Positions 13,925-47,547 of a stretch of DNA of 64,000 nt are shown here, in pieces. Location of the stretch: the NCBI GenBank assembly GCA_963785235.1, contig CAWAUM010000001.1, forward strand, positions 704,001 through 768,000, read 5' to 3'. Under the pieces are notes generated by a model. The model was given only the letters and a program-made list of their open reading frames with translations. It made no database searches and was not told where the DNA came from. Positions within the stretch are counted from its first letter, which is position 1. Every line of letters begins with the position of its first letter. The translations under genes and the position numbers were made by a program. This stretch comes from an uncultured delta proteobacterium (GTDB lineage Bacteria; Desulfobacterota; Desulfomonilia; UBA1062).

Positions 13925-14115
13925 AGGCAACCCCTAGGTTGCTTCTTTTTTAAAATAGCGTCCGTTCAAAGTCTCAATCTTGCAGCCTTCGTGGAACGTT
14001 AATTTTATTGGTCCTTCAAGGCTGCAAGATTGAGACTTTGAACGGATCAGGTTTTTACTCTTCTTCGTTATGACCGTCCCCGGGCATGGGGGTTAAACGC
14101 AAAATCTGGATTTAA
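13925..14115. repeat. Dispersed palindromic element, copy 1 (core hairpin 13961-14046)
   Basis: Perfect 29-bp arms TCCGTTCAAAGTCTCAATCTTGCAGCCTT (13961-13989) / AAGGCTGCAAGATTGAGACTTTGAACGGA (14018-14046); loop contains GTGGAACG..ATTTTAT..GTCCTTC; tail ...AAACGCAAAATCTG. Confidence 0.9.
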
Positions 14116-14335
14116 GAGGGCACTGGGAGCAAACAAGAAATGACAGGATAGATACAATGGGGAGATCCGTCATGAAACATGGAATTCCAAAAAAATGGGA
14201 AAAAATAAGAAATAATTTACATAATAATTGAGAGATCACAGGAGGTTTGGATTGGGGCACATATAGATAATAGCTTAACAATATTATAAAAATAAACAAT
14301 ACTATACTTTGGCACAACTCTTGAATATATTGTTT

Positions 14336-14485
14336 ATTCGCCCTTGAGCGAGGCTGATGCAAGGTATGGCCACCTAAGTATGCTGGGCGAAATGAATTAC
14401 GGTTAACTTAAAGAACCCTTAGGATAGACATATCCTATTCCTCCTCAGGCCGCATCCGGCATAGTGTCGGATGCGGCCTGCTCCC
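14336..14485 (+). ncRNA. Candidate sigma54-dependent small RNA
   Basis: TGGCAC-N5-TTGA at 14310-14324; stem TTCGCCC/GGGCGAA (14337-14391); hairpin AGGATA/TATCCT; TTCCTCCTC tract; 16-bp GC hairpin 14446-14480; no credible ORF. Confidence 0.35.
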
Positions 14486-14517
14486 TCAAATTGCTCATGG
14501 GTGAAGTAACTTCATGT

Positions 14518-15744
14518 CTATTCTATCACCTCAATGCGAAGCCCGAATTTAGACATGGCTTCACATTTATTCGTCAGGATAAGGATAGGATTCTCATACC
14601 GGAACCCGATCTTTTCATCAGGGCATGCATACTGCATTGCACAGATGAGGACTTCATTTTCCTGATAGATATGGTCGGGGTCCGTCCAGTAGGGGAAGGG
14701 CCCTTCACCTGTTCCTATGCGCCATTCATCGCCCAACATCCCAATCCCGTGTTCGAAGCCTGGGACCATGAATTCTGCAAAACCCCTTTCCTCGGCAAAG
14801 GCCATCATCTCTTCTGCTATGGACAAGGGGCTGGCGCCAACCTTATACGCCTTCAATGTCTTGGATACGATGTCGATGAAGTTGTGGGCATGCCAAAGTT
14901 GGCGTTTTGTAGCATGGCCGATAAAATAGTTGTGGGCATGGTCACCCAGGGCCAGCTTGAACATGGCGTGGATGTCCACCATAAGGGGCTCACCCTTTTT
15001 CAGCTTCTTGGTGGTGGCAGGGGTGCATGCACAGCCTGCCATGCCGGTGCGGTAGCCGCATGCGATTTCGTTACCGCCGGTGAAGGACCACTCCCACACA
15101 CTACCTGCCTTGCGCATGGCAAGGGCTGCAATGCCCGCGACCTCGGTTTCGGTCATGCCCTGCCATCCGCCGTTGGAAATAGCCTCTTTGACCGCCTTAT
15201 GGCCTTCATCAACGATGCGCGATGCCTTTCTGAAGCGGTTGATAGTTCCCTCATCCTTAATTACAGAGAGCCTGTCGATAATCGCATGGGCATTTACGAG
15301 TTTTGAGCCTGCAAGCGCATCTTCAAAACCTTCGTACTCGAAGTGTGTCAGGTTTCCCTCGGGCAGGTAGTTGGATACCCCTGTCTCATATCCGATGCGG
15401 CCTTTTTTGCCCTTAAGGATATCCTTTATAAAATCCGCAATGATGGTGATCTGGTCCATGCCGCCCATGGGTGCATAGCCCAGCACATGGTCTTCGTCCA
15501 GCCAGGATTCGTCGATGATCCTGGCTGCATCTATGACAAAGGTAAAGACCGTGGGCAGGCCCTCGGGCGGGATTACCACATAACTCCTCCATGGACAGAA
15601 GGCATCTGATATCCACGAGATGGTCCGTAATCGGGAACCCAGGTATACATCAATCTTTTCTGTTGCCATCTGCTGCTGTATCTGTTCCACCCGTTTGGGA
15701 AAATCGATGTAACAAGGGTCTTTCTTGTTGAATATCTTGGGCAT
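14518..15744 (-). CDS. M24 family (Xaa-Pro peptidase/creatinase-like) hydrolase
   Basis: Creatinase-type N domain; VIKDEGTI..RKA; LMVD..GD, EHGIG, GFRYEN. Confidence 0.85.
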   Translation of the reverse strand: MPKIFNKKDPCYIDFPKRVEQIQQQMATEKIDVYLGSRLRTISWISDAFCPWRSYVVIPPEGLPTVFTFVIDAARIIDESWLDEDHVLGYAPMGGMDQITIIADFIKDILKGKKGRIGYETGVSNYLPEGNLTHFEYEGFEDALAGSKLVNAHAIIDRLSVIKDEGTINRFRKASRIVDEGHKAVKEAISNGGWQGMTETEVAGIAALAMRKAGSVWEWSFTGGNEIACGYRTGMAGCACTPATTKKLKKGEPLMVDIHAMFKLALGDHAHNYFIGHATKRQLWHAHNFIDIVSKTLKAYKVGASPLSIAEEMMAFAEERGFAEFMVPGFEHGIGMLGDEWRIGTGEGPFPYWTDPDHIYQENEVLICAMQYACPDEKIGFRYENPILILTNKCEAMSKFGLRIEVIE

Positions 15745-15759
15745 ATCAGCACCTCCTCA

Positions 15760-16161
15760 TCAGTATTGGGTAGGGATCTTTGCAAGGACCTTGTTGATCC
15801 GGTCGGCGAGTGATGCAAGCTTGAGGGCCTTGACCATGTTACCTTTGAGTTTAAGTTTTCCGCTCATGAGGGCACGCTGGGATGATACCTTTCCCTGGCT
15901 GAGATCTGCAAAGAGAATGTACGGCCCGGTAACCCTGAACTCGGCTATGGGCGGCTCGCCATCGCCCACCAGGACCTGGGCGAACGCACCGTTTTCGGTC
16001 TTGAAGTAGAGGTACTTGTCTTTTCCGCCCGGGCAGCCGACATACACATAGGCCACAGATGTGGTGAGGCTCTTCATCTTATCGGTCGTGATCTCTGCGT
16101 TCAGCCTCTTTTCGACCTCATCGCGCCATTCATGGCTCAGGTAGGCGACAGTCTTCTCCAT
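15760..16161 (-). CDS. SCP2 sterol/lipid-binding domain protein
   Basis: YLSHEW start; C-terminal ALMSGKLKLKGNMVKALKL SCP2 signature. Confidence 0.85.
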   Translation of the reverse strand: MEKTVAYLSHEWRDEVEKRLNAEITTDKMKSLTTSVAYVYVGCPGGKDKYLYFKTENGAFAQVLVGDGEPPIAEFRVTGPYILFADLSQGKVSSQRALMSGKLKLKGNMVKALKLASLADRINKVLAKIPTQY

Positions 16162-16253
16162 AACAATCCTCCTATCATTGATTTACTTAAAATATATTGT
16201 TGGTGTATTGGTGATGGTATAGATGAAATAATGAACAATGAATTCATATATTC

Positions 16254-16281
16254 AGTATAGATAAATCATTGATCATGTCAA
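16254..16281 (-). promoter_or_regulatory. sigma70 promoter for the SCP2-M24 operon
   Basis: Minus strand TTGACA(16281-16276)-N16-TATACT(16259-16254). Confidence 0.55.
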
Positions 16282-16351
16282 TACTCAATCCCTGTAGTTT
16301 CTTTGCTGGACTGTGGGCCTGAATAATACTGGATGACGTGTTAAGCTGCGA

Positions 16352-16490
16352 AAAAAAACTTGGTCCGTTAAAATCCTTCACCAAAGCAGCCATTACGGAA
16401 TGCTCATTTTCCTGGTTCGGTAGGCTGCTTTGGTGAAGGATTTTAATGGATCAGATTTTGCGTTTCATAAACGCAAAATCTGCGGTTATG
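16352..16490. repeat. Dispersed palindromic element, copy 2 (core hairpin 16364-16450)
   Basis: 28-bp arms TCCGTTAAAATCCTTCACCAAAGCAGCC / GGCTGCTTTGGTGAAGGATTTTAATGGA (one G.T); followed by a perfect 14-bp hairpin CAGATTTTGCGTTT-cat-AAACGCAAAATCTG (16452-16482). Confidence 0.9.
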
Positions 16491-16588
16491 GACACATGCA
16501 ATTATAGAATACTGGTTTATACGGGTCCCCATGTGTGAGAGCCTTTAAGGGTTTTCTCTTCTGAAACAAGCAGCCATAACGTGACAGG

Positions 16589-17533
16589 TTAATCAGGCGA
16601 AGGTATCTTCGCATGCTCCTTGAGAAAGGTGACATAATCCACAGCTGCCTCCTTGGGCCTTTCCAGCATGGGCATATGTCCGCAGTCGGGCATGATAACT
16701 GTTTTTGAGTTCGGCAGGTAGCGTTCCAGCACCTGCACCGAAGAGACGTGGGTAATCCGGTCCCGGGAGCCCCAGAGGATAAGCACCGGCAGCCTCAGGT
16801 CGGGCAGCACGCTTGCTACGTCCTTATAGGTGCTCCGGATATCATTCCACATCTTCTGCTTGAAAGGGGCATCAGCAACTGACTTTCTGGCAAGTACCGA
16901 AGGTGCAGGCCAGGGGATGAAAGGTTCTTTGTAGAATGCATATCCCATGAGTTCTGTAAAGGCATCTTCAGAGGTCGGGATAAGAATGTTCTGACCTTTT
17001 TCAATGGCCTTGAGGAGATCGCTTGGCTCAGGTGAGTTGATGCCTGCTGTATCAAAGAGGCCCAGCGTGATGACCCGTTCAGGGTTCCGGTTTGTGTAGA
17101 GTATGCCCACCCAACCGCCCATGGAGTTTCCCGCGATATGGAAACGATCCAGTTTGAGGGCATCTGCAGCATCGGCAAATCCAAGTGTTATGAAGTCGAT
17201 CGTATAGGTCTTGTCATTCTCTCTTGAATTGTCTCCATGTCCCGGCAGGTCAAAGGCAATTACGCGGTATTCCTTGGGAAGAGACCTGGTGAAACGGATC
17301 CAGTTGTCCTTGTTTGCACCGAAACCATGGAGAAGCACAATAGTCTCGCCACTGCCCTGGCGCTCGAGATATGCGATCTTTTGCCCCTGCACGGAAACAT
17401 AGGCTTCATCCATCCCAGAGAGCAAACGTTCTGCAGAGATGCCGGCATCAAATATGGACTCCTGGACCGAAGCGCAGCTGTTAAGGAAGGTTAATAACAG
17501 GATTAAAAACAGGATATAAGTAACTTTTTTCAT
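16589..17533 (-). CDS. Alpha/beta hydrolase (lipase), probable lipoprotein
   Basis: Lipobox LNSC; LLHGFG, DLPGHG, GNSMGG, WGSRD, CGH. Confidence 0.9.
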   Translation of the reverse strand: MKKVTYILFLILLLTFLNSCASVQESIFDAGISAERLLSGMDEAYVSVQGQKIAYLERQGSGETIVLLHGFGANKDNWIRFTRSLPKEYRVIAFDLPGHGDNSRENDKTYTIDFITLGFADAADALKLDRFHIAGNSMGGWVGILYTNRNPERVITLGLFDTAGINSPEPSDLLKAIEKGQNILIPTSEDAFTELMGYAFYKEPFIPWPAPSVLARKSVADAPFKQKMWNDIRSTYKDVASVLPDLRLPVLILWGSRDRITHVSSVQVLERYLPNSKTVIMPDCGHMPMLERPKEAAVDYVTFLKEHAKIPSPD

Positions 17534-17559
17534 AGAAACCCCTTTTTATTTTATGAGCA

Positions 17560-18186
17560 TCACGAGTTCGTTATCACCCATGACAAATATGGCCTGATTT
17601 CCGCAAGAGTAGCCTTCATCTTGTTTCCATAGGAGTGGCCGGGCCAGATGATGGTGTTGTCCGGCAGGTCCATAATCCGGGTAATACTCTTTTTCAGGTG
17701 TGCCATGTTGCCGCCCGGAATGTCTGTCCTGCCTATTCCATCTGCAAAAATCGTATCGCCTGAGATGAGATTTCCTCCCCAGTATAAACAGATAGAGCCG
17801 GGAGAGTGTCCGGGTGTATGGAACACTTCGATATTTGTGTCTCCCAGGATGATCCGCGTATTTTCGGAAAGGGTAAAGGAGATCCTCGGATGGATACGTC
17901 CTGTAAGGAGAAAGGTGAACAGGGTATTGTACAATCTGAGAAACCAAGTGTTTTCTGCCGGATGGGCAAGAGCTGGCGCCATGTCGGCCAGACTCCGATT
18001 CCCCATGGTGTGGTCAGGGTGGATGTGGGTGTTGATGATTGCCTTGATTCTCAATGCATCAAGACCATGCCGACGGGCAATATGGAGTGGGGGATCTATG
18101 ATGAGGCCCTCACCGGCAGCATCATCACGGATGATGTAGCTCAGGAGGTTGAAGCCCTGGGTTGCGATCTGCTCAATAGTGAGCAT
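17560..18186 (-). CDS. MBL-fold metallo-hydrolase
   Basis: THIHPDH, TPGHSPGS, SGD, GRTDIPGG, PGH. Confidence 0.9.
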   Translation of the reverse strand: MLTIEQIATQGFNLLSYIIRDDAAGEGLIIDPPLHIARRHGLDALRIKAIINTHIHPDHTMGNRSLADMAPALAHPAENTWFLRLYNTLFTFLLTGRIHPRISFTLSENTRIILGDTNIEVFHTPGHSPGSICLYWGGNLISGDTIFADGIGRTDIPGGNMAHLKKSITRIMDLPDNTIIWPGHSYGNKMKATLAEIRPYLSWVITNS

Positions 18187-18198
18187 GGTAATCCTTTA

Positions 18199-18714
18199 TT
18201 AGTTCATTTCAGGTCGTGTTGTCCTGATGATCCTGCCGAATACAGGAAGCAGCAGTGTAGCCAATATGACGCTGCCCCCGGCCTGGAGGAGGTTCGCAGG
18301 CACCTCGGCAAGGGCGGCCTTCTGGTCGTACATGAAAACTTCGGTTGCATAATAGCCGAGTACCATCCAGGCAGTTGATGCGATGAAGCATAGAATGATA
18401 AATAGGGTGATCCTCTCAGTGTTGATCTTCAGATACTTTACGCTAAGGCCCATGAGCATCGCCTCGATTCCTTTGATGAACAATGTCCAGGGGGCCCACT
18501 GGTAGTAGCCCCCAAAGATGTCGGCCAGGGCCGATCCGATACCCCCGGCCATGAAGCCCAGGCTGGGCCCGAAAAACAGGCCACTGAGCAGTACCATGCT
18601 GTCGCCCAGGTTCATGTACCCATTGGTCTGGGGTATGGGGATGCGCACGACCATTGTGGCAACGGCCACCAGGGCCATGAAGAGTGCTACCAGGGCGAGT
18701 TGCTTCACGTTCAT
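18199..18714 (-). CDS. ECF transporter S component
   Basis: IPIPQTNGYMNLGD, GGIGSALAD, WAPWTLFIKG; several TM helices. Confidence 0.85.
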   Translation of the reverse strand: MNVKQLALVALFMALVAVATMVVRIPIPQTNGYMNLGDSMVLLSGLFFGPSLGFMAGGIGSALADIFGGYYQWAPWTLFIKGIEAMLMGLSVKYLKINTERITLFIILCFIASTAWMVLGYYATEVFMYDQKAALAEVPANLLQAGGSVILATLLLPVFGRIIRTTRPEMN

Positions 18715-18742
18715 GTCTATCTCCGTAGGCGGATTTTAAAAA

Positions 18743-20140
18743 TTATGTCTGCATGGAGGAAAGGGCCTTTTCAAGCCTGGAAAGAACCGTTTTTTTCCCG
18801 AGGGTCAGCATGATCTCGAACAGGCCTGGAGAAACCGTTTTGCCGGTCAGTGCTATCCTTATGGGCTGCGCGATGGTCTTGAACTTCAGGTTGAATTCCT
18901 CGAGGATGGCTTTAACGGCGTCTTCCATGTGCTCCTTGTCCCACAGGTCAAGCTGCTCGAAACGGCCTTTGATGGCTTTGAATACCGGCTCTATGTCCGG
19001 GGTATAAAATTGTTTCTTGAGATCTTCCATAGGGTCTATGTCCTGGAAGTAGAAGCCACCGAAGTCCGTTATCTCTTCGACGGTCTTGGTGCGGTCCCTC
19101 ACGTCAATGACTACCTTCGTGATGTATTCCTTTTCGGGCAGTTCATACCCTTTTTTCGTTATGAAATCCGCGACGAGCCCGGCAAGCCTCTGTGGATCGC
19201 CGTTTTTGATATAGTGGTGGTTGAGCCACAGGAGTTTTTCAGGATTGAATACGGCAGCAGCCCTTCCCACGTCGTGGATGTCGAAATACTTTTTGAGCTC
19301 ATCAAGGGTGAAGATCTCCTGGTCTCCGTGTGACCATGAAAGCCTTACCAGGTAGTTTACAAGGGCTTCAGGAAGGTACCCCATTTCCTGGTATGCCATG
19401 GCCGATGTAGCGCCGTGCCTCTTGGAAAGTTTGGTCTTGTCAGGTCCCAGAATCATGGGGACATGGGCAAACAGGGGCAGTTCGAACCCTAGGGCCTCAT
19501 AAATCTTCACCTGTCTTGGGGTGTTGTTTACATGGTCATCACCCCGTATGACATGGGTCATGTTCATGGTGGCATCATCTATGACCACGGTGAAATTGTA
19601 GGTCGGCATTTCATCGGAACGGAGCAGGATGAGATCGTCCAATTCGGCGTTGTCCATAGTGATCCTGCCCTTGATCATGTCATCGAAGGAGGTGACACCT
19701 GCATCGGGCATGAGGAAGCGCACCACCCTTCCCGGGCCGGGACCCAACCCTTTGTTTCTGCACGTGCCGTCATATTTGGGCTTTTTCCCTTCTGCAAGGG
19801 CCTGGCTGCGTTTCTTTTCCAGGTTGTCGGGGGTGCACTCGCACCAGTAGGCCTTGCCTTCATCGACGAGCTTCAAGATATAAGACTTGTAGATATCGAG
19901 CCGGTCTGACTGGAAGAAAGGGCCCTCATCCCAGTCAAGGCCGAGCCATTCCATGGATGCCAGGATCTGTTTGGTGTTGTCATCCGTGGAGCGTTCGGCA
20001 TCCGTGTCTTCTATCCGCAGTATGAACTTCCCGCCTGAGTGCCTGGCATGAAGCCACGAGAACAATGCCGTCCTTACTCCACCGATGTGGAGCTGGCCTG
20101 TTGGTGATGGTGCAAACCGAGTTCTTATCTCTTGGGACAT
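18743..20140 (-). CDS. gltX: Glutamate-tRNA ligase
   Basis: RFAPSPTG.LHIGG, LRIEDTD, HVIRGDDH, KLSKR. Confidence 0.97.
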   Translation of the reverse strand: MSQEIRTRFAPSPTGQLHIGGVRTALFSWLHARHSGGKFILRIEDTDAERSTDDNTKQILASMEWLGLDWDEGPFFQSDRLDIYKSYILKLVDEGKAYWCECTPDNLEKKRSQALAEGKKPKYDGTCRNKGLGPGPGRVVRFLMPDAGVTSFDDMIKGRITMDNAELDDLILLRSDEMPTYNFTVVIDDATMNMTHVIRGDDHVNNTPRQVKIYEALGFELPLFAHVPMILGPDKTKLSKRHGATSAMAYQEMGYLPEALVNYLVRLSWSHGDQEIFTLDELKKYFDIHDVGRAAAVFNPEKLLWLNHHYIKNGDPQRLAGLVADFITKKGYELPEKEYITKVVIDVRDRTKTVEEITDFGGFYFQDIDPMEDLKKQFYTPDIEPVFKAIKGRFEQLDLWDKEHMEDAVKAILEEFNLKFKTIAQPIRIALTGKTVSPGLFEIMLTLGKKTVLSRLEKALSSMQT

Positions 20141-20141
20141 A

Positions 20142-22061
20142 TCAGCCTCGTACCTTTTTATTGATAAAGTTTAGCAGCCCGCCTTCTCTAAGGATCTCGC
20201 TTTCGCGTTCGGAAAGGGTCAGGGTGCAGTTCAGGTGCTTGTCAGCATTTATCATGGATACCTCTATGGGTGACGATTTTGAAAGGGCAGCATGGATGTT
20301 CTTTATTGACACCGCTGTGCCCTTTTCGATCGCCCTGTATCCTTTTTCATCAACTCCTATGGGCAGGATCCCAAAGTTGATGAGGTTGGATCTGTGGATG
20401 CGCGCAAAGGATTTGGCGAACACGGCCTTTATGCCCAGGTGCATGGGGGCCAGCGCTGCATGCTCCCGGGAAGAACCCTGGCCGTAGTTGTCGCCTGCCA
20501 GTATGAAGCCGGCCTGGGAGGCCTTTGCATGTTCTGCAAAGTCCTTGTCTATACCGGAGAACACATAGCGCGAGATGGCATCGATATTGGAGCGTAGCGG
20601 CAGGATTTTGGAGCCCGCCGGCATGATGTCATCGGTGGTGATGTTGTCCTTGAGCTTCAGGACGGCTGTAAGTTTCAGGGTGTCCTCCATGGGTCCACGT
20701 TTGGGCAGGGGACGGATGTTGGGGCCCCTTCGGACTTCAATGTTTGCGGATTTTTTCACAGGCCTTATGATCATGGAGTCATCAATATGGAAAGACTCGG
20801 GCAGTTTTATTGCGGGGTAAGCACCCAGTTCCCTTGGGTCAATAAAGCTCCCGGTAAGGGCGCATGCCACTGCCACCTCGGGGGATGCAAGATAGACCTC
20901 GGCGTCTTCAGTACCGGAGCGGCCTTTGAAGTTGCGGTTGAATGTGCGCACTGACACGGCGCCGGAGGAAGGCGCCTGACCCATGCCGATGCACGGACCG
21001 CAAGCCGTCTCCAGTATCCTAGCGCCCGAGGCGATAATATCTGTAAACCCCCCGTTTGACGCAAGCATCTCCATGACCTGGCGGGAGCCCGGGGCAATGG
21101 CGAGGCTCACGTCCGGGTGGAGCTTTTTGCCTTTGAGGACGGCAGCCACCATCATAAGGTCTTTCAGCGACGAGTTTGTGCATGACCCGATAAGCACCTG
21201 GTCCACCTTAATGCCGGCGAGCTGGCGTATTGTCCTAATGTTGTCAGGGCTGTGCGGGCAAGAGGCAAGGGGCTCGATTGTTGAAAGGTCGATCTCCATG
21301 GTCTCGTCATAGGCTGCCCCTTCATCGGCGCAGAGTTCTATCCAGGCCTCCTCGCGGTCCTGGGCCTTCAGGAAGGCACGCGTCACCTCGTCGCTGGGGA
21401 AGATGGAGGAAGTGGCCCCCAGCTCTGCCCCCATGTTGGTTATGGTGGCGCGCTCCGGGACGCTCAATGTCTTCACGCCGGGTCCGTAGTACTCGAATAT
21501 CCTACCCAGGCCTCCCTTGACCGTGAGCCGGCGCAGGACCTCCAGGATGATGTCCTTGGCGCTTACCCAGGGTTTAAGGCTTGCACTCAAATGGACACCT
21601 ACCACCTTGGGCGTTGGGATGTTAAAGGGCATGCCTGCCATGGCCGCAGCAACGTCCAGCCCGCCTGCACCGATGGCCAGCATCCCCATTCCGCCTCCCG
21701 TGGGTGTATGGCTGTCAGAGCCCAGCAGGGTCTTGCCGGGAACGCTGAAGCGTTCAAGGTGCACCTGGTGGCAGATGCCGTTGCCCGGTCTGGAAAAGTA
21801 TATACCGTACTTGTTGGCCACATCCTGGAGAAAGCGGTGGTCATCGGCATTTTCAAATCCGGTCTGGAGGGTATTATGGTCCACATAGCTAACGGAGAGC
21901 TCTGTCTTGACACGGTCAAGCCCGATGGCCTCGAACTCGAGATATGCCATGGTTCCCGTAGCGTCCTGAGTCAGAGTCTGGTCGATCTTCAGGGTATATT
22001 CCGTATCCGTGGCCTCCATAAGGTGGCTTTCAATAATCTTGGCGGTAAGGGTCTGGGCCAT
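20142..22061 (-). CDS. Aconitate hydratase (short Aquifex/Clostridium type)
   Basis: QDATG, DHN, GICHQ, GSDSHT, IGSCTN, ACGPCIG, RNFKGR, GSSRE. Confidence 0.92.
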   Translation of the reverse strand: MAQTLTAKIIESHLMEATDTEYTLKIDQTLTQDATGTMAYLEFEAIGLDRVKTELSVSYVDHNTLQTGFENADDHRFLQDVANKYGIYFSRPGNGICHQVHLERFSVPGKTLLGSDSHTPTGGGMGMLAIGAGGLDVAAAMAGMPFNIPTPKVVGVHLSASLKPWVSAKDIILEVLRRLTVKGGLGRIFEYYGPGVKTLSVPERATITNMGAELGATSSIFPSDEVTRAFLKAQDREEAWIELCADEGAAYDETMEIDLSTIEPLASCPHSPDNIRTIRQLAGIKVDQVLIGSCTNSSLKDLMMVAAVLKGKKLHPDVSLAIAPGSRQVMEMLASNGGFTDIIASGARILETACGPCIGMGQAPSSGAVSVRTFNRNFKGRSGTEDAEVYLASPEVAVACALTGSFIDPRELGAYPAIKLPESFHIDDSMIIRPVKKSANIEVRRGPNIRPLPKRGPMEDTLKLTAVLKLKDNITTDDIMPAGSKILPLRSNIDAISRYVFSGIDKDFAEHAKASQAGFILAGDNYGQGSSREHAALAPMHLGIKAVFAKSFARIHRSNLINFGILPIGVDEKGYRAIEKGTAVSIKNIHAALSKSSPIEVSMINADKHLNCTLTLSERESEILREGGLLNFINKKVRG

Positions 22062-22229
22062 GGTATCTCCTTAAAAATGTCCATTCATCTCTAATGGAAG
22101 AGGGGCTCCTCGTCAAGGATGTTGGTTTTAGGATTTATTTTAACCCGGATATAGAAATTGGATGTATCCATAATTTTTTCATGCATCTCTGTTGGCCTTA
22201 AGCATAGTAATCATAGTGATCATGGAATT

Positions 22230-22368
22230 GTTTTAAATAAGTTCGTTAAAATCCTTCATCTTGAAGCCTTTATGGAATGTTCATCTTCCCGGTTCGGGAG
22301 GCTGCAAGATGAAGGATCTTAACGGAACAAGTTTTTACTCTTCAAAACGTAAAATTTGGGATTAAGGA
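22230..22368. repeat. Dispersed palindromic element, copy 3 (core hairpin 22242-22326)
   Basis: 28-bp arms TTCGTTAAAATCCTTCATCTTGAAGCCT / AGGCTGCAAGATGAAGGATCTTAACGGA (2 mismatches, 1 wobble); loop TATGGAATGTTCATCTTCCCGGTTCGGG; tail CAAGTTTTTACTCTTC..AAACGTAAAATTTG. Confidence 0.88.
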
Positions 22369-22407: not shown

Positions 22408-23442
22408 CTAGAATATTCTCCCCAGTGCAAACGACAGCAGATATGCCAGGCCACCGGAGGCAGGGATGGTAAAGAGCCAGGTTAGCAGCAGATCCTTGGC
22501 AAGCCCCCAACGGACAATGCCCAGGCGCTGCGCCGCCCCTCCTCCTACAATACCCGAGGAGGCGATATGCGTGGTGCTCACGGGAAACCCGAAAAGTGAG
22601 CAGATGAACACGACAATGGCAGTGGACAGCATGGCCCCGAAGCCATGGACCGGTCTTATCTTGAAGAGCTTCATGCCCATGGTCTTTATGATCCGTTTTC
22701 CACCTGTGAGCATGCCCAGCGACAAGGCCAGCGAGCATGCAAGGATGACCCAGTCGGGGACCATGAAGGTCCCGCCGGGGCCAGGGGTATAAAAATGTGC
22801 CATGGTTACAGGGTCGTATCGGAACAGGATAAGCAAGCTCAGGGTAATGAGCCCCATGGCCTTCTGTGCGTCATTCGTCCCATGGGAGATGGCGAGCATG
22901 GCTGCGGAAAAGATCTGGAGTCTTTTGAGAATGAGCGTTGCCGCCACCGGTTGGACATGCCGGAAGAGGCGGAAGTTCATCTTGGTGAGATGGAATGCGC
23001 TTATGAAGCCAAGGAGTGGAGAAATCAGGATCACCCCGAATATGAGCAGGACGCTCTTCCATTGAATGGAATTCACCCCTGAAATCTGTAGTGCCGCCCC
23101 CATGAGCCCTCCGATAATGGCATGGGAAGAGGACGAAGGGAGTCCGATGACCCAGGTGAGGATATTCCAGAGCGTGGCGGCCGTAATGGCTGCAATGATA
23201 CCCCTGATGGTCATGGAGTCGATGCCGACGATACCCTGCCCAATGGTTTTTGCAACAGCGGTGCCAAAGATGAGAGATCCTAGGAATACGAGCAGGGCAG
23301 TCATGATGAGTGCCCTTTGCATGCTCATGGCCCTGGATGAAACAATGGTGCTCACAATGTTGGATGCATCGTGAAATCCGTTACTGAAGTTGAAGAACAA
23401 CCCCAGCACTATGGTTAAATATGCCACTTCCAGGATGCCCAT
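22408..23442 (-). CDS. Inorganic phosphate transporter (PiT family)
   Basis: NGFHDASN, PSSSSHA, HGTNDAQK, PVSTTH motifs. Confidence 0.92.
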   Translation of the reverse strand: MGILEVAYLTIVLGLFFNFSNGFHDASNIVSTIVSSRAMSMQRALIMTALLVFLGSLIFGTAVAKTIGQGIVGIDSMTIRGIIAAITAATLWNILTWVIGLPSSSSHAIIGGLMGAALQISGVNSIQWKSVLLIFGVILISPLLGFISAFHLTKMNFRLFRHVQPVAATLILKRLQIFSAAMLAISHGTNDAQKAMGLITLSLLILFRYDPVTMAHFYTPGPGGTFMVPDWVILACSLALSLGMLTGGKRIIKTMGMKLFKIRPVHGFGAMLSTAIVVFICSLFGFPVSTTHIASSGIVGGGAAQRLGIVRWGLAKDLLLTWLFTIPASGGLAYLLSFALGRIF

Positions 23443-27143: not shown

Positions 27144-27177
27144 GCGCATACACCTATAAAATAGGAGCAAACAGACA

Positions 27178-39200: not shown

Positions 39201-39209
39201 TGCGGAGCC

Positions 39210-40056: not shown

Positions 40057-40060
40057 GATT

Positions 40061-40342: not shown

Positions 40343-40355
40343 AGAAGATACGGTC

Positions 40356-40521
40356 TGCCCCTGGCCACAAGACTATAACATCCCGAGAAAGTATGAGTAT
40401 GGGACATCGCCATTAATCAACGTGGTAAAAGGTTTTCCGCTGAGAGGAAAACCTGAAGTGTAAGCGGTTTGCGGCGAGCGGAATAAGACCACCGTAGGTC
40501 CTATACAAACTTGTGTTGGCA
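40356..40521 (+). ncRNA. ssrS: 6S RNA
   Basis: Canonical position between zapA and 5-FTHF cyclo-ligase; nested long-range pairs TGCC/GGCA, CACAAG/CTTGTG, GTATGGGAC/GTCCTATAC, GTGGT/ACCAC with an internal bubble. Ends approximate. Confidence 0.7.
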
Positions 40522-40589
40522 TCACCTTAATAAGGTTTTATTGCAAAATCTTAACCTTCCACCCCTTCCCTCTTGAATAGGGGGGGAAT

Positions 40590-41135
40590 ATGCATGACAA
40601 GTCGCAATTGCGTAAAGCGATGCTTGCAAGACGTCAAGCGATTGCCGAGGATGAGCTGAAACGTCACGAACCGGCGATTATAAAGCACATCCTGGCATTG
40701 CCATGTTATGGCAATGCGTCATCCATGGCCCTGTATATGCCCATCCGGGGGGAGGTAAGCCTCCTTTCCCTGTGGCGACCTGAACAAAGAACGATCCTCT
40801 TCCCAAAGGTGTCAGGGGATAATCTGGCCTTTTCATCTGCCGCGTCAGTTAAAGAGTTTAGGCAGGGGGCTTATGGGATCCTCGAGCCCGTTTCGCACAG
40901 AAACATGGAACTAAGCGAAATCGATTTGATTTTTGTCCCCGGAGTAGCCTTTGACCGGTACGGCCACCGGCTTGGGTACGGGAAAGGCTACTACGACAGG
41001 CTGATTGACAAGTGTCCGGACATTACCTTCATAGGGATTTGTCTGGATGAGTTTTACCTTGAAAAATTGCCTGTGGACCCATGGGACGCTTTTGTCGATT
41101 TCGTGGTAACCCAAGCCGGAATATATAAAAGGTGA
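40590..41135 (+). CDS. ygfA: 5-formyltetrahydrofolate cyclo-ligase
   Basis: KSQLRK, GEV, YGILEP, VPGVAFD..GHRLGYGKGYYDR. Confidence 0.93.
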   Translation: MHDKSQLRKAMLARRQAIAEDELKRHEPAIIKHILALPCYGNASSMALYMPIRGEVSLLSLWRPEQRTILFPKVSGDNLAFSSAASVKEFRQGAYGILEPVSHRNMELSEIDLIFVPGVAFDRYGHRLGYGKGYYDRLIDKCPDITFIGICLDEFYLEKLPVDPWDAFVDFVVTQAGIYKR

Positions 41136-41144
41136 GGTATAGCG

Positions 41145-42698
41145 ATGGAACAACTAGCGTATATAATCGTTGCACTGCTCATAGGCGCAGGTATCGGATT
41201 CGGTGTAAACTTTCTCATGAAAGGCAAGGCCATCAGTGATGCAAATGAAGAGGCATCACGCAAAATCGAAGATGCCCAGAAAAAGGCGGCAAACATAATT
41301 TCCGATGTGCAGCTTGAGGCAAAAGAGATTATTTTCGCGGCAAAGGCTCAGAGTGATGCCGAGTCCAAAGAACGTCTCAAAGAAGTATCCGCTATAGAAA
41401 AACGGATTCACCAGCGGGAAGAGTTGATTGACAACAAGCTTACCCAGTTCGATAAACGAGATCAGGAGATCAAAAAGAACGAACAATCCATAGCTGACAA
41501 GACAAGGAACCTTGAGGCCATAAAGGCTGAGGTGGAAAGTCTCAAGAACCAACAGGTACAAAAACTCGAGGAGATCAGCGGCATGGACTCCAAGCAGGCC
41601 AAGGAGGCGCTCATGCAGTCTCTGGAGAGTGAGGCCAGGCATGAGGCGGCAAAGCTCTTGAAGCAGATTCAGGATGAGGCCGAAGCGGAGGCGGACAAGC
41701 GGGCCAAGAGGATCCTGGCGACCGCCATACAGCGTTATTCCACCGATGTCGTGAGCGCACGGACCGTCTCGGTGGTGAACCTGCCGAGCGAGGAGATGAA
41801 AGGCCGTATCATAGGCCGCGAAGGGCGCAACATCCGCTCCATTGAGGCGGTAACAGGCGTTGACCTCATCATTGACGACACGCCCGATGCCGTTATCATC
41901 TCGAGTTTTGACCCGATCAAGCGTGAGATCGCACGGCTCTCCCTGGAGACCCTTGTCGTTGATGGAAGGATTCATCCCTCCCGCATCGAGGATGTGGTGG
42001 AGAAGGTAACCAAGGAGATGAATGACAATGTCTGGGAGGCCGGCCAGCAGGCTACCTTCGAGCTCGGACTGCATGGGATAAATCCGGAGCTCATCAAGCT
42101 TATAGGCAGGCTGAAATACCGGACAAGTTTTTCACAGAATGTATACCAGCACTCCCTCGAAGTAGCCCATTTATGTGGCATCATCGCTGCGGAGCTGGGC
42201 GTAAACCAGAAGAATGCCAAGCGCATTGGCCTGCTCCACGATATCGGCAAGGCAGTGGATCATGAGGTTGAAGGTTCGCATGCCATCATCGGGGCCGATA
42301 TCGCCAAACGTTATGGCGAGTCGGTCAAGGTAGTTGAAGCCATTGCCTCACACCACAACGAGTCCCCGGTCAATTCGGTCTATGGATTTCTGGTCCAGGC
42401 CGCTGATTCGCTTTCTGCCGCACGTCCCGGTGCGCGCCACGAGATGCTGGAAAATTATGTCAAGAGGCTTGTGGAGCTTGAGGGCATTGCGACCTCTTTC
42501 GATGGGGTTGCCAAGGCCTTTGCCGTCCAGGCAGGCCGGGAGGTTCGCATCATGGTGGATGTGGACAAGGTCAGCGACGATGGTGCTGATCGTCTTGCGC
42601 AGGACATCACCAAGGCCATTGAGGAGAAACTCACCTATCCCGGCCAGATCAGGGTGGTGGTGATCCGCGAGAGCAGGGCAATCAGGTTTGCAAAATAG
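41145..42698 (+). CDS. rny: Ribonuclease Y
   Basis: N-terminal TM, coiled coil, KH motif MKGRIIGREGRNIR, HD motif GLLHDIGK, AADSLSAARPGAR. Confidence 0.97.
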   Translation: MEQLAYIIVALLIGAGIGFGVNFLMKGKAISDANEEASRKIEDAQKKAANIISDVQLEAKEIIFAAKAQSDAESKERLKEVSAIEKRIHQREELIDNKLTQFDKRDQEIKKNEQSIADKTRNLEAIKAEVESLKNQQVQKLEEISGMDSKQAKEALMQSLESEARHEAAKLLKQIQDEAEAEADKRAKRILATAIQRYSTDVVSARTVSVVNLPSEEMKGRIIGREGRNIRSIEAVTGVDLIIDDTPDAVIISSFDPIKREIARLSLETLVVDGRIHPSRIEDVVEKVTKEMNDNVWEAGQQATFELGLHGINPELIKLIGRLKYRTSFSQNVYQHSLEVAHLCGIIAAELGVNQKNAKRIGLLHDIGKAVDHEVEGSHAIIGADIAKRYGESVKVVEAIASHHNESPVNSVYGFLVQAADSLSAARPGARHEMLENYVKRLVELEGIATSFDGVAKAFAVQAGREVRIMVDVDKVSDDGADRLAQDITKAIEEKLTYPGQIRVVVIRESRAIRFAK

Positions 42699-42708
42699 AT
42701 TATAATAA

Positions 42709-42788
42709 GGGTCAGGTCTTGCTTTTTGCCTACGATATCCGGATATGGATGTTTCAAGGGAAATAAGGCAAAAAGCAAGACCTGACCC
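42709..42788. repeat. Perfect 23-bp inverted repeat (REP-like palindrome)
   Basis: GGGTCAGGTCTTGCTTTTTGCCT (42709-42731) / AGGCAAAAAGCAAGACCTGACCC (42766-42788), 34-nt spacer. Confidence 0.85.
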
Positions 42789-42812
42789 CTCTCAGAAAGA
42801 AAGGGGAGCATC

Positions 42813-44000
42813 GTGTTCGAACAACAATTAGCTGAACTCAAACGGGGCATCGTTGACATCGTCTCAGAACAAGAGCTCATTGCCAAACTCAAAAAGGGCA
42901 GGCCTCTGAGGATCAAGGTCGGCTTTGACCCGACAGCGCCGGATATCCATCTGGGCCATACGGTGGTGCTCCAGAAGATGAGGCAATTCCAGGATGCCGG
43001 GCATGACGTGATCTGCCTTATCGGAGATTTCACCGGCATGATCGGCGACCCCAGCGGCAGGAGCTCCACCAGGCCGCCGCTCACCAGAACAGAAGTTCTC
43101 GAGAACGCCAAGACCTACCAGGACCAGGTGAAGAAGATCCTGGATCCGGTCCGTACGATCATGAGGTTCAATTCCGAGTGGATGGACAATATGGTGGTCG
43201 CTGACTTTATCAAGCTCACCTCTGTCCAGACAGTTGCACGCATGCTGGAGCGGGATGATTTCAAGAAGCGCTTTGTTGCCCAACATCCCATCAGCATCCA
43301 CGAGTTCCTCTATCCCTTTGTCCAGGGCTATGATTCGGTTGCCTTAGAGGCTGATGTCGAGTTGGGCGGCACTGACCAGGTCTTCAACCTGCTTATGGGC
43401 CGCGAGGTACAGAAGGCCTTTGGCCAGGAGCCACAGGTCATTATGACCCTGCCGCTGCTTGAAGGTACTGACGGTGTCCAGAAGATGAGCAAGTCATATA
43501 ACAATTACATCGGGGTGGATGATGCCCCAGGTGAAATATTCGGTAAGGTAATGTCCATTACGGACGCACTCATGTGGAAGTACTATGAGCTGCTGAGTTC
43601 CAAAACCTTACCCCAGATTGAGAGATTGAAGAAGGCAGTCGAGGCCGGCAGCCTGCACCCCATGGATGCCAAGATGAAGCTGGCATACGAGATGGTGGAG
43701 CGGTTTCATGGTAAAGAACAGGCAGATGCAGCCCTGACAGGCTTTGTGAAGGTCTTTAAGTCCAGGGAATTGCCCGAGGACATTCCTGTGGTCACCCTCA
43801 ATTTGGAAAGGCCGTGGATCTGCGCGGTGCTCAAGGAGGCAGGACTCGTGGCAGGCACATCCGAGGCCAGGCGTATGATTGCACAGGGCGCCGTTCATAT
43901 AGGTGAGGAGAAGATCGCTGATGGTGAATATGTTCTTCCCAAGGGCAGCCATGTCATAAAAGTGGGTAAGCGCAGGTTTGCACGGGTAGAGATTGTTTGA
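42813..44000 (+). CDS. tyrS: Tyrosine-tRNA ligase
   Basis: [30 protein letters not shown]-terminal S4 domain. Confidence 0.97.
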
Positions 44001-44050
44001 GGGTCTGAACTTTCGTAATGGTGATTTGAGATGAAATGAAGGGTGTTGGC

Positions 44051-44708
44051 ATGAGAAGAAATACAATTGGTTTTATCATGTTATTCACTATCGGCCTTTT
44101 TTCAGATGTTTTCGGGCAGTCTGCCAAGGACGCAATAATGGCGCTTATGAAGCTTCAGATGAAATGTGAAACAGGCATTTTATACAGCGACTATCTGCCC
44201 GCAATTACCCAGGCAAAGACACCGGTTACGGCATATATTGAAAGCCCTGCATCAAAAAACGCACCGGAATTTTCAGAAGCCCTGAGCAGTGCCCTTGTCG
44301 CATTATGAGCTCGCCGGCAGTATATTTGAATATATGTTTCATGCCGGAGCCGGGCAGCATTTTGTATCAACACAGAATCCAACGCTGTTTCATAAGATAA
44401 GACAAATCTATCCTGAATTGCATATTTATGAAAAGAAAGATGAATCCGGATTCTCTTATTCAGAGGCAATACAGATCATGTGGACAAGGGCTGCATCGGA
44501 AATAGAGAGGGCATCAGAAAAGATACCATCAGTCGCTGTAGAATCAACAACAAAGAATAATGATGAGAAGAATAACTCGGGGCAGATAAATGTCATAAAT
44601 ACCAAATTATCAAGACAGGTCCATGCCCTGAAAAATGAGAATCTAAGGCTCAGGAAACAAAATAAAGAACTCAGGAGAGAGCTCGATAAACTCAAGGGAA
44701 GGCAATAA
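44051..44708 (+). CDS. Hypothetical secreted protein with C-terminal coiled coil; frameshift near 44300
   Basis: Two overlapping ORFs (44036..44308, 44289..44708); signal-like start. Confidence 0.5.
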
Positions 44709-44823
44709 GAACAGGCCGATCTTCCAAAATGATCGTATCTATCGATTCTCTGCAGGCGATTTTAGAAAGGGGAGAACTATTACCCTTTACTTAATGAAAT
44801 TATTATATTAAATCCTTGATCCT

Positions 44824-45381
44824 ATGGATAGAAACACGCTGTCCCTTGTTCCTCTCTGTGCAGCTCTGACGGCTGCCGGAGCACTTATCAAGATTCCGCT
44901 CTGGCCGGTGCCGATAACACTCCAGACCTTCTTCGTTATCCTGTCAGGGATCATCCTCGGCCCACGGTATGGGGCATTGAGCCAACTAGTTTATATCATC
45001 ATAGGGTTACTAGGGCTTCCGGTATTCTCAGGAGGCGGTGGACTTGCATACCTTATGCAGCCGTCCTTTGGGTATCTTATAGGTTTTGTACTATCACCTC
45101 TGGCAGTGGGGAGCCTCGTGAAAAATAAAGCCCTCACCCCTATTTTGGTATTAATGGCCGCGCTTCTAGGTACACTTGTTATCTATAGCATCGGTATACC
45201 CTATCTTGCTGTTTACATGCACTTGGTGCTGAAAAAACCGGATGCAGTAAGCCTGGCTGTTAAGACCGGGGCACTGATCTTTTTGCCCGGGGACATCATC
45301 AAATGCCTTATCTTGGCCCTCATTGTTCCCAAGCTCAAGCTTCAAAGGCATATGCCCTTTAGTTGTATGATCTTGGGATGA
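44824..45381 (+). CDS. bioY: Biotin ECF S component BioY
   Basis: PVPITLQT, GLLGLPVFSGG, PSFGYLIGF, FLPGDIIK. Confidence 0.93.
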   Translation: MDRNTLSLVPLCAALTAAGALIKIPLWPVPITLQTFFVILSGIILGPRYGALSQLVYIIIGLLGLPVFSGGGGLAYLMQPSFGYLIGFVLSPLAVGSLVKNKALTPILVLMAALLGTLVIYSIGIPYLAVYMHLVLKKPDAVSLAVKTGALIFLPGDIIKCLILALIVPKLKLQRHMPFSCMILG

Positions 45382-45398
45382 TGATTATCCTCGATTCC

Positions 45399-46094
45399 TT
45401 ATTGGGCTTTGTCTATAATCTTGAGGAAGCTCTCCCTGAATCTGAGCACTTCGGGTGTGGCCGTTTCAACCTTACCCCAGAGTACTTCTTTGGCTGACAG
45501 CCCCTTTTTCCCGTATAGTGTTGCGGTTGCTGCATTGTCAAGCCGCAATGTGGCCCCCTGGAGGGCGAATCCGGCATTCAGGCCTGAAGATCTTGAGAAA
45601 GAATATATCTCGGCATTGAGACCGGAATCTGTAGTCTCGTCCATGTGTAATGCTATGGTGCCGGCCACGATGGACACGTCTGTTCCCAGTATGACATTTT
45701 TTGTTGCCTTCATCTCCAGTGCCCGGCTTCGTCTGAAGACCAGTATGAGATCAGTGGATTGCAGTCCCATCTGCAGGCCGAAGCTTCCTCCATTGATGTT
45801 AATAAGGGCCGGGTTACCCCACAGGCCGTTTTTTTCCCTGACCATGAGCACGCCCTTGCCGTACCTGGCGCCTACAAAAAAACTGGCCCTGACCATGCCC
45901 GGGATAATTGCTATCCCCTCAGCCTTCTGGAGGAGAATGGACGGTATGGCAGTTTGGGGGGATGCCATGGTCTTTGAAAATGTAAGCAGCGAATCCTGAA
46001 GCCGGAGGGATAGAGCCGGATCTGCTGCTGCAGGGCCTTGAACAGGGAAGAGGATGAGAAGCAGCAGTGACATGAACAACCATAATCGATTCAT
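45399..46094 (-). CDS. Ysc84/SYLF lipid-binding domain protein, secreted
   Basis: Signal peptide; AEGIAIIP, GARYGKG, GGSFGLQMG..STD, YSFSRSSGL.AG. Confidence 0.85.
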   Translation of the reverse strand: MNRLWLFMSLLLLILFPVQGPAAADPALSLRLQDSLLTFSKTMASPQTAIPSILLQKAEGIAIIPGMVRASFFVGARYGKGVLMVREKNGLWGNPALININGGSFGLQMGLQSTDLILVFRRSRALEMKATKNVILGTDVSIVAGTIALHMDETTDSGLNAEIYSFSRSSGLNAGFALQGATLRLDNAATATLYGKKGLSAKEVLWGKVETATPEVLRFRESFLKIIDKAQ

Positions 46095-46230
46095 AGGCCC
46101 TCTCTTTTCCTTAGGTGTTCCATCATGTGAGTACGCAAAGTCTACTAAAAACCAATCCAGGAGTCTATGGATTAAAATGAAGGGTGAACATCAAGTTATG
46201 TAACATACAGGCTTTGTTGATTCAATATTC

Positions 46231-47295
46231 CTAAACATGCTCCGGCGCTTCGATATCTTGTTGAGCAGGAGGCACTTCGGAACCCAGGAGGATTGCGATC
46301 CACCTTGTGGCCGGGAAACCCTCGCATGTTATTTTGAATATCATGGTAAGCGGTACGGACAGCAGCACTCCTACCGGGCCAAGCACCCATCCCCAGAAGA
46401 TTAAAGATAGAATGACCACGAGCATTGAAAGAGAAAGGCCTTTGCCCATAAATATGGGTTCCAGGATGTCGCCTATCACTGTCTTGATAACAATAAATCC
46501 AAATGTCACCAGGCCGGCTGAACCCAGACCCTGGTCGACGAGCGCGAGAAGAATAGGGGGTATGGCAGCAATGAAGGGGCCGATGTTTGGTATATAGTTC
46601 AAGAGGAAGGACATCAAACCCCACAAAATGGCATAATTGACCCCGATCTCCATGAGCCAGAGCGTCACTACGATTCCGGTAGCCAGGCTTATCCAGGTTT
46701 TGAGTGCAATGTACTTCTCCATACTTTGCACGATCCGGTCGATGGTCTCCTGGGTATGTAATGATGTGCCGCACACGAGGACCTTTTTTGAAAAGCCCGA
46801 AGCCTCAACGAGGATGAATACAACCGTGAAGAGGATCAGGAAGGCATAGGTGAGCGCGCTTCCGAGTCCGCTTAAGAGATTGGCAATGATCTCCATGATT
46901 GAACCGGGGTCAAAATACTGGAGGATCATCCTCTCGGAGATGTAGATATGGAAGGTCCTCAGCCATTTAATGATCATAATCATCAGGACATGGATGCGTT
47001 TCTGATACAGCGGCAGCTGTTGAAGAAAATCACTTACCGATGAACCGATATACGCCCCCACACCGAAGATTACACCGAAGATAACAACAAAGATGATAAG
47101 AATTCCAAGAGATGTGGGGACACCTTTTCTACGCATCCAGGAGAACGGTCTGCCGCACATTATTGCTATGAAGATTGAGAGAAGAAACGGCACGATGATG
47201 GCAGAGGCCGCACGCATGCCGGCAATTATGATTACAGCGCACGCAAGGGTAATGATGATTCTGCCATTTTCGAATTTATTCTGGTCAATATCCAT
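46231..47295 (-). CDS. AI-2E family transporter
   Basis: LLNYIPNIGP, LEPIFMG..L.LS, FWGWVLGPVG.LLSVPLT; own promoter TTGACA(47333)-N17-GATAAT. Confidence 0.9.
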   Translation of the reverse strand: MDIDQNKFENGRIIITLACAVIIIAGMRAASAIIVPFLLSIFIAIMCGRPFSWMRRKGVPTSLGILIIFVVIFGVIFGVGAYIGSSVSDFLQQLPLYQKRIHVLMIMIIKWLRTFHIYISERMILQYFDPGSIMEIIANLLSGLGSALTYAFLILFTVVFILVEASGFSKKVLVCGTSLHTQETIDRIVQSMEKYIALKTWISLATGIVVTLWLMEIGVNYAILWGLMSFLLNYIPNIGPFIAAIPPILLALVDQGLGSAGLVTFGFIVIKTVIGDILEPIFMGKGLSLSMLVVILSLIFWGWVLGPVGVLLSVPLTMIFKITCEGFPATRWIAILLGSEVPPAQQDIEAPEHV

Positions 47296-47390
47296 GATGC
47301 TTAGATTATCCCTAATGGTGTCCGGTATGTCAAGAAATGGACATGGGGATATGTATCGAGGCTATCCCGGAAGCTTAGGTGATGGATGGT

Positions 47391-47547
47391 TCCTTATCCC
47401 GGGTTTTGTTTAGAAACCTTATCCGTTTAAAACCTTTATCTTGCAGCCTGGTGTGGAACGCAGATTTTATCAGTCCTTCAAGGCTGCAAGATAAAGGTTT
47501 TAAACGGACCTATTAAAAGAAGCATTACCTTGGTCGTAATGAGCTTC
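47391..47547. repeat. Dispersed palindromic element, copy 4 (core hairpin 47422-47508; flanks inverted relative to the loop)
   Basis: Perfect 28-bp arms TCCGTTTAAAACCTTTATCTTGCAGCCT / AGGCTGCAAGATAAAGGTTTTAAACGGA; loop GTGTGGAACGCAGATTTTATCAGTCCTTCA. Confidence 0.9.

Follow-up and report, generated by a model that had tools for sequence, protein, structure and literature searches.

What are the long hairpins that recur between the genes of one stretch of bacterial chromosome, and why do their two arms remain paired when the arm sequences vary from copy to copy? The question is raised by 64,000 nucleotides of an uncultured delta proteobacterium, hereafter the window, which occupy positions 704001-768000 of contig C1 in the genome coded G000 (3.91 Mb, 13 contigs). 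An original prediction, made from the letters of this stretch, described four intergenic hairpins with co-varying arms and a conserved loop, and proposed for them either a non-autonomous mobile element or a multicopy structured RNA or DNA. The family was followed through the whole genome, through relatives coded G002-G012 and through metagenome-assembled genomes (MAGs), one of which represents a sister species (the sister MAG); individual loci carry L-numbers. Taken as a whole, the results make it quite probable that the hairpins belong to a non-autonomous DNA transposon, i.e., a miniature inverted-repeat transposable element (MITE), which would have been moved by an IS1380-family enzyme, is largely a relic by now and contains a palindromic core remodelled by template switching. 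The family is a new MITE family of an uncultured genus; it has IS1380-type ends and, unusually, an internal palindrome in which the spacer inverts and the arms change together. Elements of this kind are known and its architecture is distinctive; it is neither a new RNA class nor a REPIN.

Architecture and copy number of the element

The flanks of different hairpin cores were found to be homologous to each other, and orienting and aligning the copies revealed an A module on one side and a B module on the other. The hairpin is the middle module of a modular element of approximately 205-225 bp, in which a terminal repeat, the A module (about 20 nt), the palindrome (28-bp arms and a 30-nt spacer), the B module (about 85 nt) and a second terminal repeat follow one another. 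With the end included, the A and B modules measure about 35 and 100 nt, respectively. Each module is closed by a 15-mer with the tip CCCGGATTTTGCGTT, which stands in inverted orientation at the two ends. A strict motif search detected the inverted 15-mer ends in 17 of 76 oriented copies, and 33 non-redundant copies covered both ends (positions <=6 to >=221) of the full-element nhmmer model, which has 226 positions; full-length copies are about 200-250 bp long. The second hairpin described in the original prediction does adjoin the core; it consists of the A module together with one terminal inverted repeat.

The family proved to be far larger than the four copies initially counted. An iterative nhmmer search of the whole of G000 converged on 86 loci, comprising 84 intact, full-length cores and 2 partial ones, and a genome-wide scan with a covariance model built from the four window copies recovered the same locus set. 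The full-element model matched 129 loci: 42 were full length (A module, hairpin and B module), 18 had a shortened B module, 24 contained the A module and hairpin only, 12 were solo A modules, 20 were solo or partial B modules and 13 had other partial forms. Eighty of the 84 cores were free of overlap with any open reading frame (ORF) call. The loci were densest on contig C9 (78 kb), with 14 loci or 18 per 100 kb, and the other element-carrying contigs had 0.6-5 per 100 kb. The depth peaks seen over the element from mapped contigs of public runs reflect copy number only.

The four cores of the window lie where they had been predicted. Of these copies, the third is full length; most of the A module is missing from copy 4, and copies 1 and 2 have no B module. 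The features are listed below in window coordinates, with no strand assigned.

13944..14109, copy 1, a shortened element with A module and hairpin and no B module (model positions 4-139)
13958..14050, copy 1 core, stem of about 30 bp and loop of about 30 nt (-57.9 kcal/mol, z -11.9; covariance model 107 bits)
14095..14109, copy 1 terminal inverted repeat AAACGCAAAATCTGG (direct reading; same boundary in G011 and G008)
16331..16485, copy 2, A-type modules on both sides of the hairpin, end class "AA" (model positions 6-125)
16360..16454, copy 2 core (-60.2 kcal/mol, z -11.9; covariance model 87.6 bits)
16469..16482, copy 2 terminal inverted repeat AAACGCAAAATCTG (direct reading; terminal-repeat scan)
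22139..22365, copy 3, full length, reading repeat, B, hairpin, A, repeat on the plus strand (model positions 3-226)
22144..22158, copy 3 B-end terminal repeat, degenerate, starting CCCGGAT (direct reading; end listing of full-length copies)
22239..22330, copy 3 core, with one bulge and one mismatch (covariance model 94.4 bits)
22346..22360, copy 3 A-end terminal repeat AACGTAAAATTTGGG (direct reading; end listing of full-length copies)
47410..47610, copy 4, hairpin with complete B module and terminal repeat, A module shortened (model positions 26-225)
47419..47512, copy 4 core (-49.4 kcal/mol, z -10.1; covariance model 100.3 bits)
47594..47609, copy 4 B-end terminal repeat AATTGTAAAATCCTGG (direct reading)

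In copy 1, the A module between the terminal repeat and the core contains an extra insert. The terminal repeat of copy 2 is the outer half of the formerly proposed second hairpin (16452-16482). By direct reading, the range of copy 3 takes in the flanking 5-mers TTTAA (22139-22143) and ATTAA (22361-22365); its core folds with -40.5 kcal/mol on the plus strand and -43.2 kcal/mol on the minus strand (z -6.3 and -8.4). According to the ORF list, copy 4 abuts the stop codon of a minus-strand gene at 47611-48441. Two compound arrangements were also observed outside the window: at the end of a MAG contig (L090), a full element is nested in a hairpin-less one, in the position that the hairpin would occupy, and in G008 (L032) two elements abut end to end.

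Insertion, target duplication and distribution

The sequences flanking the 33 full-length copies were compared with a null in which the right flanks were shuffled among copies. The flanking 4-mers were identical in 10 copies, with 3.95 expected (2 of 5000 shuffles reached 10), and the flanking 5-mers shared 107 of 165 letters, with 89.6 expected (0 of 5000 shuffles). Since non-consensus pairs such as TTCA/TTCA and ATAA/ATAA were among the matches, the flanks reflect duplication and not merely a target preference. An exact ATTAA duplication was seen in the filled/empty pair at L077. Insertion into AT-rich, TTTAA-like intergenic pentamers with a 4-5 bp duplication is shown by these data.

A pattern scan of public MAG contigs returned 35 loci, of which 31 belonged to the sister MAG and 3 to other MAGs; one hit of the scan, L102, was set aside as an unrelated chance hairpin. 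Two of the three loci from other MAGs have flanks matching G000 and are, therefore, probably from mis-binned relatives. The flanks of the 31 insertion loci of the sister MAG were 81-98% identical to G000. The element was shared at 18 of these loci (17 distinct G000 sites), G000 had a clean empty site at 5 and a fragment only or a different insert at another 5, and the remaining 3 carried no assigned state. Some of the insertions or losses took place after the sister species had diverged. At L090, the site of the nested elements on the contig of another MAG, G000 is likewise empty.

The window copies gave a similar picture. A contig from public run X2 joins position 22138 to 22364 and skips 225 nt of copy 3, with ATA in between, and the same site is empty in G009, G010 and G012. 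Where copy 1 sits, G011 has an element that decayed differently and ends at the same boundary, and G008 has a solo terminal repeat; G003 and G004 are without the element, and in G002 a larger deletion covers the site. At the site of copy 2, the A and B modules of G011 are joined and the hairpin is missing. Empty orthologous sites and target duplications, which the original prediction had named as signs of mobility, were both encountered among the relatives, in G000 and on one metagenome contig.

The core model matched 3 of 14 other species of the genus, namely two carriers with many copies (among the 82-105 matches listed for each, with both strands counted) and a third species with 2 weak matches; in 37 genomes spread over 13 further genera of the family there was no match. 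G002, which ranks second in closeness over this region (88-90% identity), is nevertheless without the element, and the more distant G008 (77-78% identity) has many copies. The distribution is patchy and limited to one genus. The element is short and non-coding, has terminal inverted repeats and target duplications, and is multicopy with filled and empty sites, as MITEs are. The suggestion of a MITE-like non-autonomous mobile element was, in this respect, well founded, given the inverted ends, the duplications, the approximately 130 loci, the empty sites and the patchy spread within one genus.

Origin of the paired arms and of the mobility

Whichever strand is folded, every window copy forms one long hairpin with a stem of 25-30 bp and a loop of about 30 nt (-40 to -60 kcal/mol; z -6.3 to -13.7; none of 200 shuffles as good). 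The outer motif TCCGTT...AACGGA, the inner motif GCAGCC/GGCTGC, the variable arm middles and the two loop subtypes (copies 1 and 4, copies 2 and 3) were all visible in the alignments, as first described. The covariation of the arms was confirmed to be far above chance. In 76 rows (38 loci, both strands), 97.2% of the cells were paired versus 86.6% after shuffling, and 22 of 33 pairs changed on both sides; none of 500 shuffles reached the observed values, and sliding the partner columns reduced the pairing to 30-49%. Across all 84 genome copies, 1795 of 1839 cells were canonical in 22 consensus pairs, and six stem positions had two to four pair types at high frequency. The surroundings of the stem are asymmetric, as it borders on an A-rich junction at one end and on CCTATTTT at the other; the stem is preceded by an A-run at a distance of 4-5 nt and followed by a T-run at 3-4 nt.

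The spacer does not keep its orientation. Scored against the A and B ends, which are asymmetric, the loop had one orientation in 48 cores and the opposite one in 28, with 8 ambiguous, and six arm haplotypes were found with both loop orientations. At 18 orthologous loci compared with the sister MAG, the loop had the same orientation in 9 and was inverted in 9. When two flipped loci and one unflipped locus were aligned directly, flanks and arms were 87-95% identical and the flipped spacers matched only as the reverse complement. One of these orthologous loci showed an in-situ change on both arms (CTTTATC/GATAAAG versus CTCAATC/GATTGAG). According to the accessible text of the respective papers, template switching between the arms of an inverted repeat homogenises the arms and inverts the spacer (PMC8604942), and it can maintain perfect stems (PMC8794818). 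Because spacer inversion and arm homogenisation are both outcomes of template switching, the covariation would have a cause at the DNA level and selection at the RNA level would not be needed. Polymerase template switching between the arms would invert the spacer and would also copy changes from one arm to the other, giving rise to apparently compensatory covariation. DNA-level template switching, which the original prediction had raised as a caveat, is the best-supported explanation of the arm covariation. The palindrome is also lost by deletion, which leaves hairpin-less and solo-module derivatives; the breakpoints of the hairpin-less derivatives differ, indicating that such losses occurred repeatedly.

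The ends of the element point to the IS1380 family of insertion sequences (IS). Among 122 genomes of the class, 36 contained IS1380-family elements at E <= 1e-30, including 2 of the 51 genomes in the family; within the genus, the only IS1380 transposase fragments were in G002, which is without the element. The genome G120, of the same family, carries an IS1380-family element of 1601 bp (L114; transposase 336 bits) with the ends GCCGGATTTTGCCC and CCCGGATTATGCAC, each of which has 12 of 14 letters in common with the MITE tip. Over the first 45 nt, the MITE B end aligned to an L114 end with a score of 40 (19.6 +/- 3.6 in shuffles; 0 of 500) and the MITE A end with a score of 29 (15.6 in shuffles; 1 of 500). 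In 80 metagenome loci encoding relatives of the L114 transposase, 19 contained a site with <=3 mismatches from the MITE end; approximately 14 of these sites were in the expected orientation at IS ends, the best one matching at 13 of 15 positions (L134). A complete IS1380-family copy of 1643 bp (L189) had perfect 15-bp repeats and CTAG on its flanks. For ISEcp1, a member of the IS1380 family, the accessible text of PMC6061673 gives CCTAGATTCTACGT as the left repeat and states that its direct repeats measure 5 bp; this left repeat, as printed there, shares 10 of 14 letters with the MITE end. Judged by end identities of 12/14 to 13/15 and by the 4-5 bp duplication, the ends are of IS1380 type. 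The 15-bp ends may have been recognised by an IS1380-family DDE transposase moving the element in trans, and this enzyme may since have been lost from the carrier genomes or remained unassembled. In G000, terminal-repeat sites with <=2 mismatches numbered 104, of which 55 were near cores and 49 elsewhere (chance expectation about 25; 17 in 2.7 Mb of shuffled sequence), and inspection by eye disclosed no convincing IS-sized pair of terminal repeats in this genome.

Several observations weigh against the explanation. The carrier genomes G000, G008 and G011 contained no IS1380 transposase. A whole-element nhmmer search of 14 plus 80 IS1380 loci gave no match, and homology to the IS beyond about 15-45 nt of the ends was not found in the IS1380 loci searched, so the partner can be proposed from short end similarity and duplication length only. 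The flanking 4-mers were not identical in 23 of the 33 full-length copies, and many of the 4-5-mers were imperfect. None of 3486 core pairs reached 98% identity (median 76%), which gives no sign of very recent bursts. The flips could instead have arisen by gene conversion between copies or from mixed populations that were assembled differently, and the conserved-variable-conserved build of the arms, together with the conserved loop motifs, hints at a constraint beyond template switching. Finally, the gene contexts used below derive from crude longest-ORF calls. Some of these points bear on the age of the family: many shortened copies, the missing partner enzyme and the lack of near-identical cores make it look largely inactive now, and with the mobilising enzyme gone or unassembled in the carriers, it would by now be a largely decaying relic.

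The same data were used to weigh other accounts of the hairpins. The variant of the original prediction in which a REPIN-like doublet is moved by a RAYT (HUH/Y1) enzyme, so that the hairpin represents two inverted REPs recognised as single-stranded DNA, is extremely unlikely. It would fit a long, multicopy, intergenic hairpin with covarying arms, and G000 does encode two Y1_Tnp homologues (54 and 47 bits). However, it is the whole 220-bp element, with its inverted ends and 4-5 bp duplications, that varies in presence, and not the hairpin alone, and inverted-repeat ends with duplicated targets are the mark of a DDE transposase, which leaves a REPIN or HUH/RAYT variant unsupported. No element copy lies within several kb of either Y1 gene, an unrelated 19-nt motif stands in inverted copies on both sides of one of these genes, and Y1 homologues occur in 10 of 11 genus genomes without the element. 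A structured RNA family, i.e., small RNA genes or cis-regulatory leaders with a stem kept by selection for RNA pairing, is also very improbable, even though the arms covary very strongly (99.1% pairing in helix 1; both partners altered in 19 of 28 pairs) and the loop motifs are conserved. A permissive Rfam scan gave best hits of 16-27 bits, compared to gathering scores of 43-160, and no known family covered the hairpins at gathering or permissive thresholds. The orientation relative to flanking genes was unbiased in tandem contexts genome-wide (21:20 by loop, 18:18 by element), which makes the shared loop orientation of the four window copies, stressed in the original prediction, a coincidence. 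The stability of the RNA fold had no strand bias either (sense better in 21 of 41, antisense in 20 of 41), the inversion of the loop at 9 of 18 orthologous loci is not what an oriented RNA would tolerate, and the hairpin is embedded in a bounded mobile unit.

It is unlikely, if less so, that the hairpin persists mainly as a two-way terminator or insulator for the host, with mobility being only the way in which it spread. Owing to the A-run before and the T-run after the stem, both strands read a stem followed by a T-run; moreover, 32 of the 84 copies (38%) lie between convergent genes, compared to 19.5% of all intergenic gaps, and 11 (13%) lie between divergent genes, compared to 21% of gaps. 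A bias towards convergent gaps, however, is also expected for any mobile element from selection against promoter disruption. The T-run is offset from the stem, a simple terminator scan (loop of 3-8 nt, gap of 0-2 nt between stem and T-run) did not flag the hairpins, and the hairpins are often deleted. Within the transposon explanation, one may speculate that, through its A-run, stem and T-run, the hairpin would halt transcription weakly in both directions and so make an insertion less costly. A rather doubtful further idea is that the palindrome is a selected, recombinase-independent "flip-flop" module. If this were true, the conserved stem blocks and loop motifs would be recognised by the transposase, by a host protein or by a cruciform-binding factor. 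The hypervariable paired stem middle and the free inversion of the spacer would then be tolerated or even put to use, possibly for drawing together the two ends of the 220-bp element or as an orientation-independent insulator. The family would then combine a MITE architecture with a functional invertible core, and its 84 loci would form a natural system for measuring the rates of inversion by template switching.

Neighbouring features and relation to known systems

The genes next to the window copies are ordinary housekeeping genes. They are listed here with the remaining features of the window.

13281-13874, minus strand, HD-domain gene next to copy 1 (Pfam)
14518-15744, minus strand, M24 peptidase gene next to copy 1 (Pfam)
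15760-16161, minus strand, SCP2 gene next to copy 2
16281-16254, minus strand, sigma-70-like promoter match TTGACA-16-TATACT outside the element (11 of 12 consensus positions; a consensus match only)
16589-17533, minus strand, alpha/beta hydrolase gene next to copy 2
20142-22061, minus strand, aconitase gene next to copy 3
22408-23442, minus strand, PHO4 transporter gene next to copy 3
61739-61823, minus strand, transfer RNA gene, the only Rfam match at the gathering threshold in the window

As the original prediction had proposed for copy 2, a strong sigma-70-like match does lie between this copy and the next gene, SCP2; the region as a whole is not enriched in promoter-like sites (13 versus 10.2 +/- 3.2 in shuffles). 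In this neighbourhood, contig C32 of G002 is missing about 4.2 kb that other genus members have, corresponding to window positions 14514-18757 and comprising the M24 peptidase, SCP2 and alpha/beta-hydrolase genes and two further ORFs; an additional stretch of about 12 kb separates the aconitase and PHO4 genes of G002.

Two other repeat systems were noted in G000. A second, smaller hairpin family with at least 6 copies has a stem that starts like the MITE core (CCCGTTCAAA...) and a loop of 3-7 nt. Its copies are as follows.

C1:144479-144558, short-loop hairpin
C1:238682-238756, short-loop hairpin
C1:466062-466133, short-loop hairpin
C11:239709-239787, short-loop hairpin
C3:296809-296877, short-loop hairpin
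C7:93194-93298, short-loop hairpin

With their A-run and T-run flanks, the short-loop hairpins look like two-way terminators. A single related hairpin was detected in G009 (L033). At C3:296700-297070, G000 has an insert of about 300 nt with a short-loop hairpin, and the sister MAG (L093) has a long-loop MITE; both inserts are located between AATAT repeats and do not align to each other. Outside the window, at C1:221412-222272, a gene for a 241-aa Y1 (IS200/RAYT-like) transposase is situated between inverted 19-nt motifs, GGGGACGGGTTCTCATTTC, for which 9 sites were counted genome-wide at <=2 mismatches. The Y1 gene and the motif seem to form a small REP/RAYT-like system of their own, with no relation to the hairpin family.

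What looked like a family of covarying hairpins can now be described as a mobile element for which boundaries, ends, a target and a likely enzyme family can be named. The results also carry a warning, as strong stem covariation in multicopy DNA is no evidence for a functional RNA. With 84 copies and half of the orthologous spacers inverted, the family is an unusually rich natural record of template switching at bacterial inverted repeats, which covers arm homogenisation, spacer inversion and palindrome deletion and may be used for estimating the rates of these events. The elements appear to break or gap short-read assemblies, and they mark intergenic hot spots, which matters for the annotation of these uncultured genomes: the fragmented G011 assembly (530 contigs) holds many copies, and a run of N (L061; contig C55, about 8726-8825) stands exactly at the orthologous position of copy 3.

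A narrow search of the literature on IS1380, miniature inverted-repeat elements and the ISEcp1 repeat did not bring up a description of the element. Its closest likeness is to bacterial MITEs, which include the Correia elements of Neisseria, ERIC and RUP. The MaeMITEs of Microcystis are described as such in the accessible text of PMC2779907. Like these, the element is about 220 bp long, non-coding, multicopy and intergenic, with inverted ends and short duplications, and it is present or absent between relatives and leaves shortened and solo remnants. In contrast to these, its hairpin is an off-centre internal palindrome that is not made by the terminal repeats, the spacer is inverted at half of the compared orthologous loci, and the carriers have no autonomous partner. 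The resemblance to the IS1380 family lies in the ends, which begin CCCGGATT and share 12/14 letters with each L114 end, 13/15 with L134 and 10/14 with the ISEcp1 repeat as printed, and in the 4-5 bp duplications, as compared to 5 bp for ISEcp1 and CTAG for L189. Unlike members of that family, the MITE has no transposase gene, no homology was detected further than about 45 nt from its ends, and nothing like its internal palindrome is present in the IS copies that were inspected. REP and REPIN sequences are likewise hairpin-forming, multicopy and intergenic, with complementary arms; the element differs from them in its inverted ends and target duplications and in being unlinked to Y1 genes. The BOX elements of Streptococcus pneumoniae consist of boxA, boxB and boxC modules. 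By description, and not by sequence, the present family resembles them in its modular build and in copies without one or more modules; BOX is not known to have an invertible palindromic core. Finally, both outcomes of template-switch mutagenesis at short inverted repeats and quasipalindromes, arm homogenisation and spacer inversion, as treated in the accessible text of PMC8604942, PMC8794818 and PMC7202029, recur here. The repeats considered in that text are isolated ones, whereas here the process is traced at 18 orthologous loci of one bacterial mobile family and, by inference, extends to its 84 copies.

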